Source: a virus (Duplodnaviria; Caudoviricetes). From it: a stretch of DNA of 64,000 bases. Of the stretch, positions 9,682 through 14,859 are shown in pieces (position 1 is the stretch's first letter; each line of letters starts with the position of its first letter). The translations under genes and the position numbers were made by a program. The notes beneath the pieces are model-generated. The model did not search any database and had not been told where the DNA came from. It saw only the letters and a list, made by a program, of their open reading frames with translations. Location: positions 13,218 to 77,217 of the IMG/VR virus record IMGVR_UViG_3300032007_000067. One strand, 5' to 3'.

Positions 9682-9885
9682 GACATACCTCTCAAAAACA
9701 CTAATAATCAGCAATCCTATCATAACGGAAAACGCACGTCATTATTTAGCGTTGTATCACAAAACAAAAATTTTTCCGTCTTTCCTGTCTGTTTTCGGTA
9801 CACTTTGTTTGTTGTTGTCTCATGCGGGTGATAGGATCTGCAATTACCCCTTTTCGGGGAAAGCAGTTTTTAAAAGGTGAATAAA

Positions 9886-11016
9886 ATGAAAGTAATAAAA
9901 AGGGACGGTTCCTCCGAAAACTGGAACCCTGATAAGATCAGACAGGCGGTGTCAAAAGCCGTTGTCAATCACGAGAACACGGAAAAAGCAGTTGCCATCG
10001 CTATCGACCGTATTCAATCCTCTTTTTGCACTATTGATGTAGAGACAATTCAGGATATTGTCGAGCAGGAATTAGGGTATAACGGCAATGTAAACACGCT
10101 CCGTAATTACGCTCATTATCGGGCTGAACGGGCGAACGTCAGAAGTGTAAATGCAATTCTGAATGATATTTACAAAAAGCAGGATTCCACTATTCTGAAT
10201 GAGAACGCAAATATTGACGGCGAGACAAACTGTGCAAAGCGTGATTTTATCGCCAGCGAGATCTGTAAACAGTGGGCTTTAACACACTTTCTTCCGAAGG
10301 ACATTGCCAACGCTCATATCCGGGGTGATATTTACATTCACGATCTCGGCTTTTCTCCCGCCGGTGGCTATATCAACTGCTGTCTTGTTAATATTAAAGA
10401 TATGCTCGAAAATGGCTTTACAATGGGAACTGCACATATCACAGAACCTAAATCCATTCGGGTTGCCACCAACGTTGTCGCTCAGATTATTACCGCTGTT
10501 TCTTCTCAGAATTATGGCGGTACGAGCGTTGATCGTATTGATGAAGTTCTTGCTCCTTACGTTGAAAAAAGCTATGAAAAGTATTGCAATGAAGTTCAGG
10601 AAGAATACGGGGATATTTGCGATGCTGATGTTAAGAAAATTGCCATGAAACGCACTGAAAAAGAATGTGAGGATGCGTTTCAGCAATTAGAATATTCCAT
10701 CAACTGCTCCCACAACTCTCACGCCCAAGTCCCGTTTGTAACATTAGGATTCGGACTGGGCGAAAGCAAGTGGGCGAAAATGATTCAGAAATGGATTCTG
10801 AACACCCGTATCAAAGGTTTGGGAAAAGAACGGAAAACCGCAATATTCCCGAAACTTGTATTTGCTCTGAAACGGGGATTAAACCTGACGCCGACAGATC
10901 CGAACTATGACATCAAACAGCTTGCATTAAAATGTTCAGCACGGAGAATGTATCCGGACATTGTAAGTTATGATAAGGTAACGGAGGTGACCGGCGGTTT
11001 TAAATTTCCGATGGGT
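9886..11016 (+). CDS. nrdD: anaerobic (class III) ribonucleoside-triphosphate reductase, exon 1
   Basis: ATP cone (KVIKRDG), NENAN, HIRGDIYIHDL, NCCL, QNYGG, IFPKL, RMYPD; ends at ..FPMG, ATG 9886 follows SD AAGGTGA. Confidence 0.95.
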
Positions 11017-11279
11017 GAACTTTAAAGACTGCCCATGTAAAACCTGTCTAAACAGGGGATCTCTTTTGAAATAAAGACAATCCTGTGCTAAATGACGAAA
11101 GTCTAAAAGCTAAACGACTAACCCTGATGAATGTAAGGGTGTAAGGTACAAGCAAATGGTATCTGAAATGATAGGCACTTATCATAAGATAAGCGAAGAT
11201 ATAGTCTGATCTGTATGGTGACATACAGCAGTTCATAAGAGAACGGGCGTGAACTTGCGATCCATGCCGAACACAAATG
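11017..11279 (+). mobile_element. group I self-splicing intron (263 nt, no homing endonuclease) in nrdD
   Basis: Removal restores PMG|CRSFL; exon ends in U, intron ends in G; IGS GCCCAT (11031-11036) pairs with exon ATGGGT giving the U.G splice pair; P4 CAGGGGA/TCCTG; P7 GACTA/TAGTC with AAGATATAGTC. Confidence 0.93.
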
Positions 11280-12263
11280 TGCAGAAGTTTCTTATCTGAA
11301 TGGACTAACGAAAAGGGAGAAAAACAGTATTCAGGACGTTGGAATTTAGGTGTGACAAGTGTTAATTTGCCCCGAATTGCCCTGAGACTCACCTCGGACA
11401 AAACAGAAGAAAGAATTGCCGAATACTTTCTTGAACTTGACAAGGTGAGTGAACTTGCTCACAAGGCTTTACAAATGCGGATTAAAAGGCTTTCCACTGT
11501 ACGGGCAAAACAGGCTCCTATCTGCTGGCAGTATGGGGCATTGACCAGACTGAAACCGGATGATTATATTCTGCCGTCATGTCAGAACGGACGGGCAAGT
11601 ATTTCCCTCGGCTATGTAGGCGTGAATGAAGCTGTGCATCAGATTTTTCTTTCCGATGATACGTTGCTTGAAAATGCCGAAATGAGAAAGGTAGCCGAGG
11701 ATATTGTGAAATTCCTTTCAGATAAATGCAAGGAATGGAAGGCGGTTGAACATTACGGGTATTCCCTGTATTCCACACCCGCTGAAAGTCTTGCTCATGT
11801 GTTTGAGAACAAGGACAGAAAAGAGTTCGGGGTTGTGAAGAATGTTACCGACAAGGAATATTACACAAACTCATTTCACCTTGACGTGCGGGTGAAAACC
11901 GATCCTTTTACAAAGATCGATTTTGAGTCTCCGTATCCTAAATGGGCATCCGGCGGGCATATTACTTATGTAGAGACCCGCAATTTAGAGGACAATCTGC
12001 CGGCACTGGAAGAACTGTGGGACTATGCTTATGACAAGGTTCCGTATTTTGCTATAAATGCTCCGATTGACTCATGCACCTGTGGTTTTCACGGTGAGAG
12101 TGTGTTTAAGGACGGCAATTTCACCTGTCCGAAGTGCGGTACATCCGATCCGGAAGAACTGCATTGCACACGCCGTATCTGCGGTTATCTTGGAGAAATA
12201 AACAGTCGGGGTGTGAATATCGGCAAGATTGACGAATTTCAGAAGCGGGTAAAGCATTGTTAA
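11280..12263 (+). CDS. nrdD: anaerobic ribonucleoside-triphosphate reductase, exon 2
   Basis: CRSFL, GRWNLGVTSVNLPR, YSTPAESL, YYTNSFH, GGHI, Zn ribbon CTCG..CPKCG, glycyl-radical loop RRICGYL. Confidence 0.95.
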   Translation, partial: CRSFLSEWTNEKGEKQYSGRWNLGVTSVNLPRIALRLTSDKTEERIAEYFLELDKVSELAHKALQMRIKRLSTVRAKQAPICWQYGALTRLKPDDYILPSCQNGRASISLGYVGVNEAVHQIFLSDDTLLENAEMRKVAEDIVKFLSDKCKEWKAVEHYGYSLYSTPAESLAHVFENKDRKEFGVVKNVTDKEYYTNSFHLDVRVKTDPFTKIDFESPYPKWASGGHITYVETRNLEDNLPALEELWDYAYDKVPYFAINAPIDSCTCGFHGESVFKDGNFTCPKCGTSDPEELHCTRRICGYLGEINSRGVNIGKIDEFQKRVKHC

Positions 12264-12398: not shown

Positions 12399-12929
12399 AT
12401 GGCAGAAAAACAGATAAAATCACGCAAAAGAGTTCAGGAACATGCAGAAGTGTTTACAGCCGAGCGAGAAGTCAATGCGATGCTGGATCTCGTAAATAAC
12501 GAATTGTTACGTCCTGAATCCACTTTTCTTGAACCGGCTTGCGGAGAAGGAAATTTCACGGTAAAGATCCTTGAACGCAAACTGACCGCAATTATAAAAA
12601 CCAATCCTGAGAATTACCGTTATTTTGCTCTTATTGCCTTATCCGGAATATACGCCATTGAACTCTTGCCAGACAACGTAAAGATTGCAAGACGGCGTAT
12701 GCTGGAGACGTTTGTCGCTTTTTCCGTGATTGCAGATCCTGACACTCCGGACAGTTATTTCAAAACAGCCGAACATATCATAGAAAAGAATTTTGTAAAC
12801 GGTAACACGCTTACAGGTTTACAACCGGACGGAACGCCGATAAAGTTTACAGAATGGACGATTGACGGGACAAAGATTTACGGAAGGGATTATGAGTACA
12901 ATGCTTTAGTGAACGGAACTTTGTTTTGA
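12399..12929 (+). CDS. truncated adenine-methyltransferase-like protein (SAM-binding half only)
   Basis: RVQEHAEVFT, motif I FLEPACGEGNF, YAIELL, NFVNGNTL; stops before any NPPY/DPPY catalytic motif. Confidence 0.75.
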   Translation: MAEKQIKSRKRVQEHAEVFTAEREVNAMLDLVNNELLRPESTFLEPACGEGNFTVKILERKLTAIIKTNPENYRYFALIALSGIYAIELLPDNVKIARRRMLETFVAFSVIADPDTPDSYFKTAEHIIEKNFVNGNTLTGLQPDGTPIKFTEWTIDGTKIYGRDYEYNALVNGTLF

Positions 12930-12940
12930 TTTTTTTTCAA

Positions 12941-13165
12941 TCACCAAAAGTAATAACCCTGATCAAGGGGTTTTGCTTTTAGCCAAATATTCAGTTCTTT
13001 CATGTCGTATTTCAGTTTTTCATTCATTCTGCGAAGCTGAATAAGTCTGTTATTCAGGCAAGCCTGACAACCTTTATGGTTACGACAATACACGTCAAAG
13101 ACTTTAGATCCCCTATAAGGTTTCCTATGCTCTTTTCCATGTTCTATTGCTTTATCCAACGACAT
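12941..13165 (-). CDS. small basic hypothetical protein
   Basis: 74-aa ORF with GAGGAA SD, C-x4-C-x2-C pattern; last gene of the tRNA transcript. Confidence 0.65.
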   Translation of the reverse strand: MSLDKAIEHGKEHRKPYRGSKVFDVYCRNHKGCQACLNNRLIQLRRMNEKLKYDMKELNIWLKAKPLDQGYYFW

Positions 13166-13184
13166 AAAAATTCCTCAGATAGAT

Positions 13185-13251
13185 CCCGAAATATCGGACT
13201 CGAACCGATAACAATATCCTAGGTTTATTTTGCCTGTTAAACTAATTCCGG
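13185..13251 (-). pseudogene. tRNA-like element with shortened anticodon arm, no CCA
   Basis: 7-bp acceptor CCGGAAT/ATTTCGG, D arm, T arm ATCGG-TTCGAGT-CCGAT; only ~17 nt between D and T arms. Confidence 0.6.
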
Positions 13252-13292
13252 CGATCCATCTTAAATGACTCTTTCTCAAAAGCTATTTAAGA

Positions 13293-13377
13293 TGGTGGAG
13301 AGGGAAGGACTCGAACCTTCAAACCGCAAAGGGGGCAGATTTACAGTCTGCTGTCATTACCATTAGACAACCTCTCC
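13293..13377 (-). tRNA. tRNA-Tyr(GTA)
   Basis: Full cloverleaf, GCAGA-CTGTAAA-TCTGC anticodon arm, long variable arm, TTCGAGT loop, encoded CCA. Confidence 0.95.
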
Positions 13378-13381
13378 AAAA

Positions 13382-13455
13382 TGGCGGGGAATCGGGAATC
13401 GAACCCGTATTCTGACTGATCATTTCAGAACTCTCACCAGAGACTTTTAACCCCA
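13382..13455 (-). pseudogene. degenerate tRNA-like element (possible GAT anticodon)
   Basis: T loop TTCGATT and encoded CCA, but acceptor only 4 good pairs, 4-nt D loop, anticodon hairpin TTCTGA-AATGATCAG-TCAGAA. Confidence 0.5.
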
Positions 13456-13460
13456 TAAAC

Positions 13461-13535
13461 TGGTACACCCGACCGGATTCGAACCGGTATTACCACCGTG
13501 AAAGGGTGATGACCTGACCATTAGTCGACAGGTGC
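13461..13535 (-). tRNA. tRNA-Glu(TTC)
   Basis: Cloverleaf GCACCTG/CGGGTGT, TCACC-CTTTCAC-GGTGG, TTCGAAT, CCA. Confidence 0.95.
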
Positions 13536-13536
13536 A

Positions 13537-13610
13537 TGGTTGCGGGGCAAGGAGTCGAACCTTGAACTGAAGCTTATGAGACTTCAATGATACCCTTTCA
13601 ATACCCCGCG
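13537..13610 (-). tRNA. tRNA-Met(CAT), initiator-like acceptor
   Basis: CGCGGGG/CCCCGCA (C1.A72), GAAGT-CTCATAA-GCTTC, TTCGACT, CCA. Confidence 0.9.
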
Positions 13611-13615
13611 ATTAT

Positions 13616-13692
13616 TGGAGGCTCCCGGCGGATTCTGCCACCGCAGCTCGAGGCACTACAGCCTCGTATCCTTACTTTTGGACGACAGGAGC
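13616..13692 (-). tRNA. non-canonical tRNA (8-nt anticodon loop CTGTAGTG, T loop GGCAGAA)
   Basis: Acceptor GCTCCTG/CGGGAGC, D stem GTCC/GGAT, anticodon stem CGAGG/CCTCG, T stem GCGG/CCGC, 3' CTCCA. Confidence 0.65.
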
Positions 13693-13710
13693 AAAAATGT
13701 TCAGAGGAAA

Positions 13711-13797
13711 TGGCTACCCCGATAGAATCGAACTATCAAACATTGAAGGAAAGCTGACGAACAGTTGTTACCGATCATGTTGCAAACCTGCGGGGTC
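13711..13797 (-). ncRNA. tRNA-like RNA with acceptor/T-arm/CCA but no recognisable anticodon arm
   Basis: 5' GACCCCG pairs with 3' CGGGGTA; GATAG-TTCGATT-CTATC T arm; ends GCCA. Confidence 0.55.
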
Positions 13798-13804
13798 TTA
13801 AAAT

Positions 13805-13895
13805 GCGGAATCTGAAATCAGTTAAGTTATCAAACCGTTTTTGAGATAACGGCAAGGATAACCCGTTTTGAGATACGACTTCATTCAAACTCCGC
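13805..13895 (-). ncRNA. candidate structured ncRNA with two identical AUCUCAAA loops
   Basis: 12-bp closing stem GCGGAGTTTGAA/TTCAGATTCCGC; hairpins CGT-ATCTCAAA-ACG and CCGTT-ATCTCAAA-AACGG; GGTTATC/GATAACT stem. Confidence 0.55.
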
Positions 13896-14057
13896 TGGAC
13901 AGCAAAAAACTGAAACCAAATTAAGCGTCCGACAAGCGGAATCATTGTTACAGCCCGTTAAAAATCTGTCCGATCGGATTGTTTTTGCTAGGACAAACAC
14001 CGATCTTTTATCACGGTTTTTCTGTTTCGATACCTAGTGGAAACACGGATTATCTCA

Positions 14058-14086
14058 ACTTTATCACACTCAGAAACCCGTGTCAA
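14058..14086 (-). promoter_or_regulatory. promoter of the tRNA/ncRNA operon
   Basis: TTGACA-17 bp-TAAAGT with extended -10 TGn. Confidence 0.75.
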
Positions 14087-14105
14087 CAAAACAATGTTTG
14101 TTTTT

Positions 14106-14121
14106 TGTGATACACCTCTCA
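14106..14121. promoter_or_regulatory. CRP-like box
   Basis: TGTGA-TACACC-TCTCA (9/10 consensus), centred about -62 from the predicted tRNA-operon start. Confidence 0.55.
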
Positions 14122-14213
14122 TTTTACAGCCTTACCTACTCAAATTCAATCCGGTTTAATGCGGTTTCAAACGCTCCGATTCCGGAGAACAAACTCAGTA
14201 ACTTTATCATAAA

Positions 14214-14399
14214 TCAAACCTCTTCCGGAACATCAGGCCAGTAAACAACCGTAACAACATAGATCTCTATGCGATCATTCCCTGTAACGGAAACATTAAT
14301 GCTTTTTACTTCAATATCGTTCTCCTCCAAAAACTTATTGACAGACGCCTCGGCTTTTGCGGCAGTAGCCGCCGAAAAGATTTTAATTCTCATATTCAT
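14214..14399 (-). CDS. small hypothetical protein
   Basis: 61-aa ORF with AAGGAG SD; KIKIF..VNKFLEEN..VKSI pattern common in small phage proteins. Confidence 0.65.
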   Translation of the reverse strand: MNMRIKIFSAATAAKAEASVNKFLEENDIEVKSINVSVTGNDRIEIYVVTVVYWPDVPEEV

Positions 14400-14434
14400 C
14401 GCTTATATTCTCCTTTGCGTAATTCATAACAATA

Positions 14435-14656
14435 TCATTTTGTTTCCGGAACATCGGTTTTGAATATTACAACAACATCTTCTTCTCTTTTGCTGAAATA
14501 ATACTCGGAATATGCCAGGTTAAAAACCTTGTCAAACTCCGTTCCAAGCCTGACATAACTGTTATACAAACAATGATCCCGCCCCATTATCATCACATGG
14601 ACAGCATTGTAAATACCCAATAAACGGGATACCTCCCGCCCTATAATTTCATTCAT
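14435..14656 (-). CDS. hypothetical protein
   Basis: 73-aa ORF, AGGGA SD. Confidence 0.55.
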   Translation of the reverse strand: MNEIIGREVSRLLGIYNAVHVMIMGRDHCLYNSYVRLGTEFDKVFNLAYSEYYFSKREEDVVVIFKTDVPETK

Positions 14657-14859
14657 TCATCTTTCCCTAAATAATTGTCCTGCCCGTAATCAGTTCCCAA
14701 TGTCACCCACACCATCACAATGATGGCGGTCAGCCATATTGCAAGCAACACCCCGCCGACAAGCAGAACCATCGTTTCAAGATCCATATTTAATCCCCGA
14801 ATATACTCACATAACTTCTAACGGCAATCACGGTAAACACCGCAACGGCAATCATTATC

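Follow-up and report, generated by a model that had tools for sequence, protein, structure and literature searches.

An eight-nucleotide anticodon loop in a strain-variable phage tRNA operon: a tRNA-derived and probably non-decoding accessory unit

We analyzed a 64-kb stretch of phage DNA (64,000 nucleotides, hereafter the window) and examined a 77-nt tRNA-shaped unit on its minus strand that carries an 8-nt anticodon loop. The unit is probably a tRNA-derived, non-decoding accessory unit, either a disabled tRNA paralogue or a mimic, two readings that the data do not separate. The window belongs to a 77-kb phage record with genes for a primase, a helicase, a DNA polymerase, a portal protein, a major head protein, and a terminase, and the samples are bovine rumen or gut. 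The coordinates of the unit, its parts, and its surroundings are summarized in Table 1.

Table 1. Features of the studied unit and of its surroundings, in window coordinates.
Feature	Position	Strand	Remark
Cytosine-5 DNA methylase gene	14136..14210	-	cut to 24 codons
Sigma-70-like promoter TTGACA, 17 nt, TG-n-TAAAGT	14058..14086	-	10/12 matches, extended -10
tRNA operon body	13185..13797	-	seven tandem units
Unit 1	13711..13797	-	first unit of the operon
13-nt spacer, upstream unit to studied unit	13698..13710	-	recombination junction, matched twice around the ~121-nt insertion (runs X7, X10)
Studied unit	13616..13692	-	77 nt, cloverleaf including the C-U-CCA tail
Acceptor stem, 5′ strand GCUCCUG	13686..13692	-	pairs with CGGGAGC at 13621-13627, 7/7 pairs including U6.G67
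D arm GUCC / AAAAGUAA / GGAU	13668..13683	-	single G in D loop in place of G18G19
Anticodon arm CGAGG / CUGUAGUG / CCUCG	13649..13666	-	8-nt loop, 6 nt if C32-G39 pairs
T region GCGG / UGGCAGAAU / CCGC	13628..13644	-	4-bp stem, 9-nt loop, no UUCRANY
3′ tail C73-U-CCA	13616..13620	-	L187 haplotype: G73-CCA without the extra U
tRNA-Met	13537..13610	-
tRNA-Glu(UUC)	13461..13535	-
Ile-like odd unit	13382..13455	-
tRNA-Tyr	13293..13377	-
CUA unit	13185..13251	-	last unit of the operon
Cys-rich 74-aa protein	12941..13165	-	ends the operon
nrdD	9877..12263	+	two ORFs

Read from 13692 to 13616, the sequence of the unit is GCUCCUG / UC / GUCC-AAAAGUAA-GGAU / A / CGAGG-CUGUAGUG-CCUCG / AGCU / GCGG-UGGCAGAAU-CCGC / CGGGAGC / C / U / CCA. 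All 20 stem pairs are standard and uninterrupted (18 Watson-Crick pairs, U6.G67, and G10.U25), and the parts follow the tRNA spacing 7-2-4-8-4-1-5-8-5-4-T-7-1, with UC as the acceptor-D linker and a variable region of 4 nt. When the 3′ partners were slid by 1–3 columns as a register control, pairing fell from 100% to 36–52%. RNAfold gave a free energy of −31.6 kcal/mol, with z values of −2.5 (77 nt) and −3.2 (73 nt) that are comparable to that of the adjacent real tRNA-Met (z = −3.1), and 1 of 200 shuffled sequences folded equally well. The minimum free energy structure closes an extra C32-G39 pair, which leaves a 6-nt anticodon loop. The GC content of the unit is 62%, as against 42% for the genome. 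The initial annotation had described an intact cloverleaf with a CGAGG/CCUCG stem, an 8-nt loop (6 nt with the C-G pair), and a C-U-CCA end, and the sequence and RNAfold confirmed each of these features.

The T region is where that description needed correction. The T loop had been given as GGCAGAA; it is indeed non-canonical, but a loop of 7 nt requires a U.U closing pair, so that the paired stem is 4 bp and the loop is UGGCAGAAU, of 9 nt. The 7-nt reading contains no G53-C61 pair, and RNAfold prefers an alternative CUGC-GGUG-GCAG hairpin in this region. Moreover, the D loop AAAAGUAA has a single G and thus lacks the GG pair, a fourth deviation beyond the three that had been listed. A register shifted by one, with U as the discriminator, was rejected, as it mismatches U1 with C72 and U49 with C65, lengthens the acceptor-D linker to 3 nt, and is also contradicted by the G73-CCA end of a second haplotype (locus L187). 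A plus-strand ORF at 13587-13757 is not a gene; it runs across three tRNA-type units, and the frame is destroyed in sister strains.

We compared the unit with the known classes of tRNA. It gave no match to Rfam RF00005 (gathering threshold 29 bits) at E≤10, even in a search of 97 nt, and in a 4-kb search the neighboring tRNAs scored 48–60 bits and the unit was not among the matches. ARAGORN did not call the unit at the default setting or with -ps, -ps90, or -ps80; its default calls in the operon were Tyr, Glu, and Met only, and with -ps80 it added the operon's remaining three odd units while still passing over this one. The canonical anticodon loop has 7 nt, U33, and a purine at position 37; CUGUAGUG (8 or 6 nt) departs from this in all of the assemblies and in L187, and the unit likewise lacks the canonical 5-bp T stem with G53-C61, UUCRANY, and G18G19. 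The 7-bp acceptor stem is present, with a C-U-CCA tail in the window and in sequencing runs X7 and X10 and a G-CCA tail in L187. Frameshift-suppressor tRNAs have an otherwise canonical, chargeable body, which the sequence of the unit lacks. In allo-tRNAs, the acceptor branch has 12 bp arranged as 8+4 or 9+3 pairs and the variable arm is usually long (PMC5389517). This class was ruled out, because the acceptor of the unit has 7 bp (the eighth pair would be U8-C65) and the T stem 4 bp, for a total of 11 bp, with a variable region of 4 nt. As these defining features were tested and are absent, the unit is not a suppressor tRNA, a canonical tRNA, or an allo-tRNA, and none of the detectors used predicts it to be a working tRNA. 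Ordinary or frameshift decoding is very unlikely in view of four defects: an anticodon loop of 8 nt, a T region that lacks both U54-U55 and G53-C61, the absence of GG from the D loop, and, in the window strain, a 5-nt tail. The unit shares tRNA ancestry, the loss of functional features, and the absence of conservation past close relatives with tRNA pseudogenes, but the stem decay expected of a pseudogene is not seen.

The unit, including its 8-nt loop, is identical in three other assemblies, one of which possibly comes from the source sample of the window itself: L079 (a Logan DNA run), L080 (a JGI metagenome), and L081 (a Logan contig from a metatranscriptomic library, run X3). They were found through an exact match to the 74-aa protein encoded just downstream, and 800 nt of the operon are 100% identical among them. 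All sequencing runs were examined as contigs. A second haplotype at L187:1184-1259 retains the 8-nt loop and the T region, carries A29>G (A29-U42 to G.U), and ends in ...CGGGAGC-G-CCA. An assembly indel, raised in the initial annotation as a possible source of the extra loop nucleotide, is therefore excluded by three identical assemblies and a divergent haplotype with the same loop. In runs X7 and X10, the unit differs from that of the window only by 13664 T>C (plus strand), again A29>G, and the tail is C-U-CCA; in this strain, an insertion of ~121 nt, flanked by the duplicated 13-nt spacer, lies just upstream of the unit. The L187 unit directly abuts the spacer that comes after tRNA-Tyr in the window. 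Thus, neither the 8-nt loop nor the odd T region varies among three operon architectures (window, X7/X10, and L187).

The 3′ end is not constant. The extra 3′ nucleotide is not a conserved feature, because L187 ends in a normal G73-CCA, and the difference between CUCCA and GCCA indicates that nothing holds the acceptor end fixed. It follows that the three deviations are not coordinated, as had been proposed. The two haplotypes show one body difference, which is one-sided (A-U to G.U), and no double change, at a divergence of ~1%; two sequences differing at one body position would be too little to show selection on the unit.

In regards to distribution, several strains of this phage and all of its more distant relatives lack the unit, so that the proposal that it is maintained is not demonstrated. 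L170 and L171 share the promoter, the leader, and unit 1 with the window, and homology to the window ends just past the 13-nt spacer in L170, L171, and L184. In L170 and L171, the slot is filled by a gene for a 410-aa RRXRR+HNH (IscB-like) protein, followed by a different tRNA set, and in L184 a third filler replaces the unit and tRNA-Met. The unit is also absent from L188-L190, L217, and L218. In the sister strains without the unit, the neighboring 61-aa protein is 97–100% identical and the flanking genes are of equal size (~9 kb compared). Judged by these alternative fillers of the slot, the unit is an accessory cassette in a recombination hot spot. The IscB-like gene lies at L170:6994-8226 with ~300 nt of non-coding sequence upstream and is also found in L171, L162-L168, and L189; this mobile element, inside a phage tRNA operon, occupies the slot of the studied unit, tRNA-Met, and tRNA-Glu.

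Searches for homologues were negative. BLAST and R1, a covariance model built from the unit, found no homologue in the relatives identified through NrdD (L001, L002, and L006 from IMG/VR; metagenome loci L082-L088, NrdD identity 73–88%), and R1 found none in ~0.9 Mb of related loci. When the cluster was searched by BLASTN in 50,697 phage records, only generic tRNA matches appeared. Exact-pattern scans of IMG/VR with the anticodon arm and with 34 nt spanning the anticodon and T arms gave no match. The loop-only pattern gave 2 matches in IMG/VR, neither with a cloverleaf, and 26 in the GTDB species genomes, approximately the chance number, none of which was a cloverleaf by the model. Two weak matches were dismissed as chance: an R1 match in L044 (16 bits) lies inside a DNA polymerase ORF, and a BLAST match in the relative G001 (L012) covers an RBS-like stretch.

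The tRNA-Glu of the same phage is the closest relative that we found. With filters off, it was the best non-self R1 match in every strain searched (21–25.6 bits in four strains), as compared with 15–17.5 bits for tRNA-Tyr and 12.5 bits for one tRNA-Met; no R1 match was listed for the other ARAGORN-called tRNAs in the searched loci. The 5′ third and the acceptor of the unit align with tRNA-Glu. In our alignment (A5), the tRNA-Glu(UUC) of the operon and the unit share GCNCCUG-UC-G, U6.G67, the D-loop frame AA..GU.A, GAAUCCG in the T arm, and CGGG in the 3′ acceptor strand; the acceptor pattern GCNCCUG/CGGGNGN is common to both. Furthermore, the G73 of the L187 unit is the discriminator of tRNA-Glu in several strains. 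The two differ in an unrelated anticodon arm, in a loop of 8 rather than 7 nt, and in the rebuilt T loop. These similarities suggest that the unit is likely a paralogue of tRNA-Glu, although the overall identity of ~50% is close to that of unrelated tRNAs.

The operon is driven by a strong sigma-70-like promoter that is conserved in L170, L171, and L187, and no terminator-like site was found in it before 12955-12972. The unit is in tandem register with the tRNA-shaped units on either side of it, both of which end in CCA. A 2,143-nt contig of metatranscriptomic library X3 (that is, L081) covers 12691-14833 and is centered on the operon, and a 186-nt contig of the metatranscriptomic run X17 covers 13851-14036, the leader only, beginning ~15 nt past the expected transcription start. 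The two contigs hint at transcription of the operon; the contig over the unit is not proof of it, because the library may contain DNA.

Several other units of the operon are also unusual. Unit 1 (L170:6600-6690) combines an acceptor stem, a T arm, and CCA with a middle part that is unrelated; its conservation extends to the sister strains L170, L171, L184, and L187, and its T stem in L170 and L171 shows a compensatory change from GAUAG/CUAUC to GAUGG/CCAUC, so that it looks like a maintained RNA. The CUA unit (L187:1296-1366) has CUA in an anticodon-like loop and is labeled 'tRNA-Pyl' by ARAGORN -ps90. When the window is compared with L187, every acceptor difference of this unit leaves pairing intact (C-G to U.G, G-C to G.U, and G.U to A-U), and in the T stem both partners of one pair have changed, from G-C to U-A. 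The Ile-like unit combines a 6-bp stem with a loop of 9 nt, AAUGAUCAG; the relative G002 (L008, minus strand, ~2412-2336) has a similar unit, in which UGAUCA lies in a loop of 10 nt. The working tRNA-Glu of the window, compared with L184:1354-1428, L188:691-765, and L217:1138-1212, shows compensatory changes both in the D stem, from GACU/GGUC to GAAC/GUUC, and in the anticodon stem, from CACC/GGUG to CUCC/GGAG, and the discriminator is A or G depending on the strain. This variation serves as a positive control for maintained units at this divergence.

Observations were also made on the genes around the operon. The Cys-rich 74-aa protein has 63 homologues in IMG/VR and no Pfam family; in 9 of 60 loci scanned, the 4 kb upstream of its gene contain tRNA genes in the same orientation. 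The loci named for this protein are L019, L027, L032, L033, L042, L058, L069, and L070; L032 and L033 contain a 'tRNA-???' with a 6-nt anticodon loop. The cytosine-5 DNA methylase gene (MIKLLSLFSGIGAFE...) is cut to 24 codons in the window, L170, and L171 and is intact, at 385–524 aa, in other strains of the same phage (L172:6236-7393 and L177:2270-3808). The two ORFs of nrdD (382 and 328 aa) are ~250 nt apart, consistent with an intron, and both have NRDD Pfam matches in the gene calls of sister strains; in L085 and L087, the exon-2 match spans ~270 extra nt and may reflect a further insertion.

On this evidence, we give close to an even chance to the reading of the unit as a disabled paralogue (pseudo-tRNA) in a strain-variable cassette of the tRNA operon. 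The unit would be a copy of a tRNA gene that has lost decoding and stands closest to the tRNA-Glu lineage of the operon. It would be co-transcribed with its neighbors from the operon promoter, and RNase P and 3′ trimming would probably still excise it as a small stable RNA, since the acceptor stem and the 4-bp T helix are intact. The frequent recombination that shuffles the operon units would carry the disabled paralogue along. Dispensability, a very narrow distribution without homologues, the variable 3′ end, the failure of every tRNA detector, the lack of any gene that needs recoding, the tandem register in a promoter-driven operon without an internal terminator, and the R1 match to tRNA-Glu all favor the disabled copy. 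Decayed tRNA copies are, moreover, found in related operons: a clearly decayed tRNA-Phe-like copy in G001 (L009, minus strand, ~1660-1590) and a copy of the Ile-like unit at L170:8385-8458, where an acceptor mismatch and UCA in place of CCA suggest decay.

Against a disabled paralogue, 20 of 20 stem pairs are intact while every tRNA-defining loop deviates. By a rough estimate, ~7 events all falling outside the stems have p ~0.01–0.03 under neutral decay from a canonical tRNA. The body also survived three operon architectures with a single change that preserves a pair, and the GC content is well above that of the genome. In addition, other odd units of the operon show compensatory changes, which indicates that the operon carries functional non-canonical RNAs. 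The absence of decay is, however, also expected of a very young relic, because the haplotypes have diverged by only ~1%. We take the unit to be dispensable to the phage.

The same features bear on a second reading, which we regard as possible but on balance unlikely: that the unit mimics a tRNA without decoding and is maintained because of its shape and of the Tyr-type loop face C32-U33-G34-U35-A36. It might, with a similarly limited probability, bind and titrate a host enzyme that attacks or modifies tRNAs whose anticodons contain G34-U35; a colicin-E5-like nuclease, a PtuAB-like nuclease, and tRNA-guanine transglycosylase are examples. Perfect stems with altered loops would be expected of such a mimic, as would retention through three rearrangements with a pair-preserving change. 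Loop positions 32–36 are identical to those of the tRNA-Tyr of the operon (CUGUA), and the neighboring unit 1 and CUA unit carry compensatory changes. An accessory, hot-spot location is typical of counter-defence genes, and the patchy strain distribution would be explained if the mimic were an accessory counter-defence cassette. The phage T5 tRNA-Tyr counters the retron-Eco7 nuclease PtuAB and a phage tRNA-Lys counters PrrC (PMC11555353), and phage tRNAs are known to carry anticodon-loop changes (PMC10264068). Against a mimic, no homologue was found beyond one sub-lineage or in sister strains, the two distinct sequences show no covariation, and no tRNA-related enzyme was found among the 26 phage ORFs scanned against PHROGs or Pfam; the flanking small proteins likewise matched no tRNA-related family in Pfam or PHROGs. 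We know of no non-decoding tRNA decoy that acts against such enzymes, and a literature search found none, the published cases being working tRNAs. The most novel form of this proposal, in which the unit is a selected decoy that is excised from the operon transcript, presents a UGUA loop on a rigid 5–6 bp stem, titrates a tRNA-targeting nuclease or modification enzyme, and is one module of a shuffling set of anticodon-altered mimics in rumen phages, seems to us improbable.

A third reading, that the unit is a processing or punctuation element whose tRNA-shaped fold serves only to direct RNase P and 3′ trimming and thereby fixes the ends of unit 1 and tRNA-Met in the polycistronic transcript, has a small probability in our estimate. 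The acceptor stem, the T helix, and the CCA-like tail are the best kept parts, the operon has no internal terminators, and the stable RNAs of the phage T4 tRNA region are released by such processing. Both neighbors, however, are tRNA-shaped with their own CCA and would be processed without the unit. The downstream neighbor is also different in L187, and the neighbors are present without the unit in L184, L170, L217, and L218.

We examined recoding in the 64-kb window using the ORFs of at least 200 aa. Under translation table 11, the long ORFs of the window are open, including 21 of at least 280 aa, the longest of which has 1,935 aa. Reading CTAC as one step (CTAC=Y) lengthened no ORF of at least 200 aa in the window and shortened or broke the primase, a 381-aa ORF, and the large terminase, and TACA=Y broke most of the long genes in the window. 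Reading TAG as Q made no material change in the window genes; since it changes nothing of substance, the CUA unit of the operon is not needed for in-frame TAG. A search for ORFs split at CTAC had been suggested for the unit, and its outcome speaks against a role there: a four-base reading of CTAC or TACA helps no ORF of at least 200 aa and breaks real genes. A working +1 frameshift or quadruplet suppressor that reads CUAC or UACA through the 8-nt loop is therefore very improbable, as the genes show no need for recoding and the body is non-canonical. The loop is real and conserved in both haplotypes, and laboratory suppressors with 8-nt loops exist (PMC9094753), but the strains without the unit have flanking genes of equal size, the body fails every tRNA model used, the T and D loops lack the elbow nucleotides, and the tail of the window strain is one nucleotide too long. 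An 8-nt anticodon loop alone is thus no sign of recoding.

A chance fold in an inter-tRNA spacer without tRNA ancestry is the least credible reading of all: relaxed ARAGORN (-ps80) gives ~30 spurious cloverleaves in the 77-kb genome and the unit has no homologues, but none of these cloverleaves combines 20 unbroken pairs, the position, and a CCA tail, and the exact tRNA geometry, which slid registers lose, the z values of −2.5 to −3.2, the tandem register between CCA-ending units, the unit's own CCA, and the likeness to tRNA-Glu put the probability of such a fold at this site at <1e-4 by a rough estimate.

Among known systems, the unit belongs most naturally with those tRNA-derived units in phage tRNA regions that do not decode. 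Like the tRNA pseudogenes of phage clusters, it lies in tandem with real tRNAs, fails covariance models, is strain-variable, and is dispensable. It is unlike typical pseudogenes in that all stems are intact and GC-rich and the loops heavily altered; typical tRNA decay also breaks stems. Species 1 and 2 of phage T4 (rnaC/rnaD) and the stable RNAs of T5 are non-decoding small RNAs of unknown function among tRNA genes. These RNAs resemble the unit in being encoded among and co-transcribed with tRNAs and presumably released by tRNA-processing enzymes. The T4 RNAs, however, are of greater length and show conservation across the T-even phages; the unit is restricted to a single sub-lineage within one species of rumen phage.

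The +1 and quadruplet suppressors with 8-nt loops, such as sufD, SufB2, and engineered qtRNAs (PMC9094753; bioRxiv 10.1101/2020.12.31.424971), share with the unit an extra anticodon-loop nucleotide on a 5-bp stem. These suppressors have a canonical body and a CCA end and are aminoacylated, in contrast to the odd T and D loops, the variable tail, and the lack of target genes of the unit. The counter-defence tRNAs of phages resemble the unit in their tRNA-rich region and in an altered anticodon loop (PMC10264068), with which the Tyr-type CUGUA face of the unit may be compared. The published examples are functional decoders that replace or outlast cleaved host tRNAs; the unit cannot plausibly decode and could therefore act only as a decoy, which would be a new mechanism.

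Another tRNA-shaped RNA was observed in the relatives G001 (L009, minus strand, ~1425-1325) and G002 (L008, minus strand, ~2262-2150). In this conserved RNA, a long helix replaces the anticodon arm and consists of 6 bp, a bulge, and 7–11 bp capped by an 8-nt loop, UUUAAGUA. It is followed by a structured stretch of ~170 nt that shows a compensatory change between CCACCG/CGGUGG and CCUCCG/CAGAGG.

By itself, the studied unit is a small curiosity, one more tRNA-shaped element overlooked by annotation pipelines, and its main value is as a well-documented example of the make-up of phage tRNA operons. Should it prove to be a mimic, no earlier case would be known of a phage that uses a non-decoding tRNA decoy against tRNA-targeting immunity. 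Phage tRNA operons are mosaics, with slots that hold working tRNAs, odd tRNA-like RNAs, mobile elements such as the IscB-like gene, and disabled copies.
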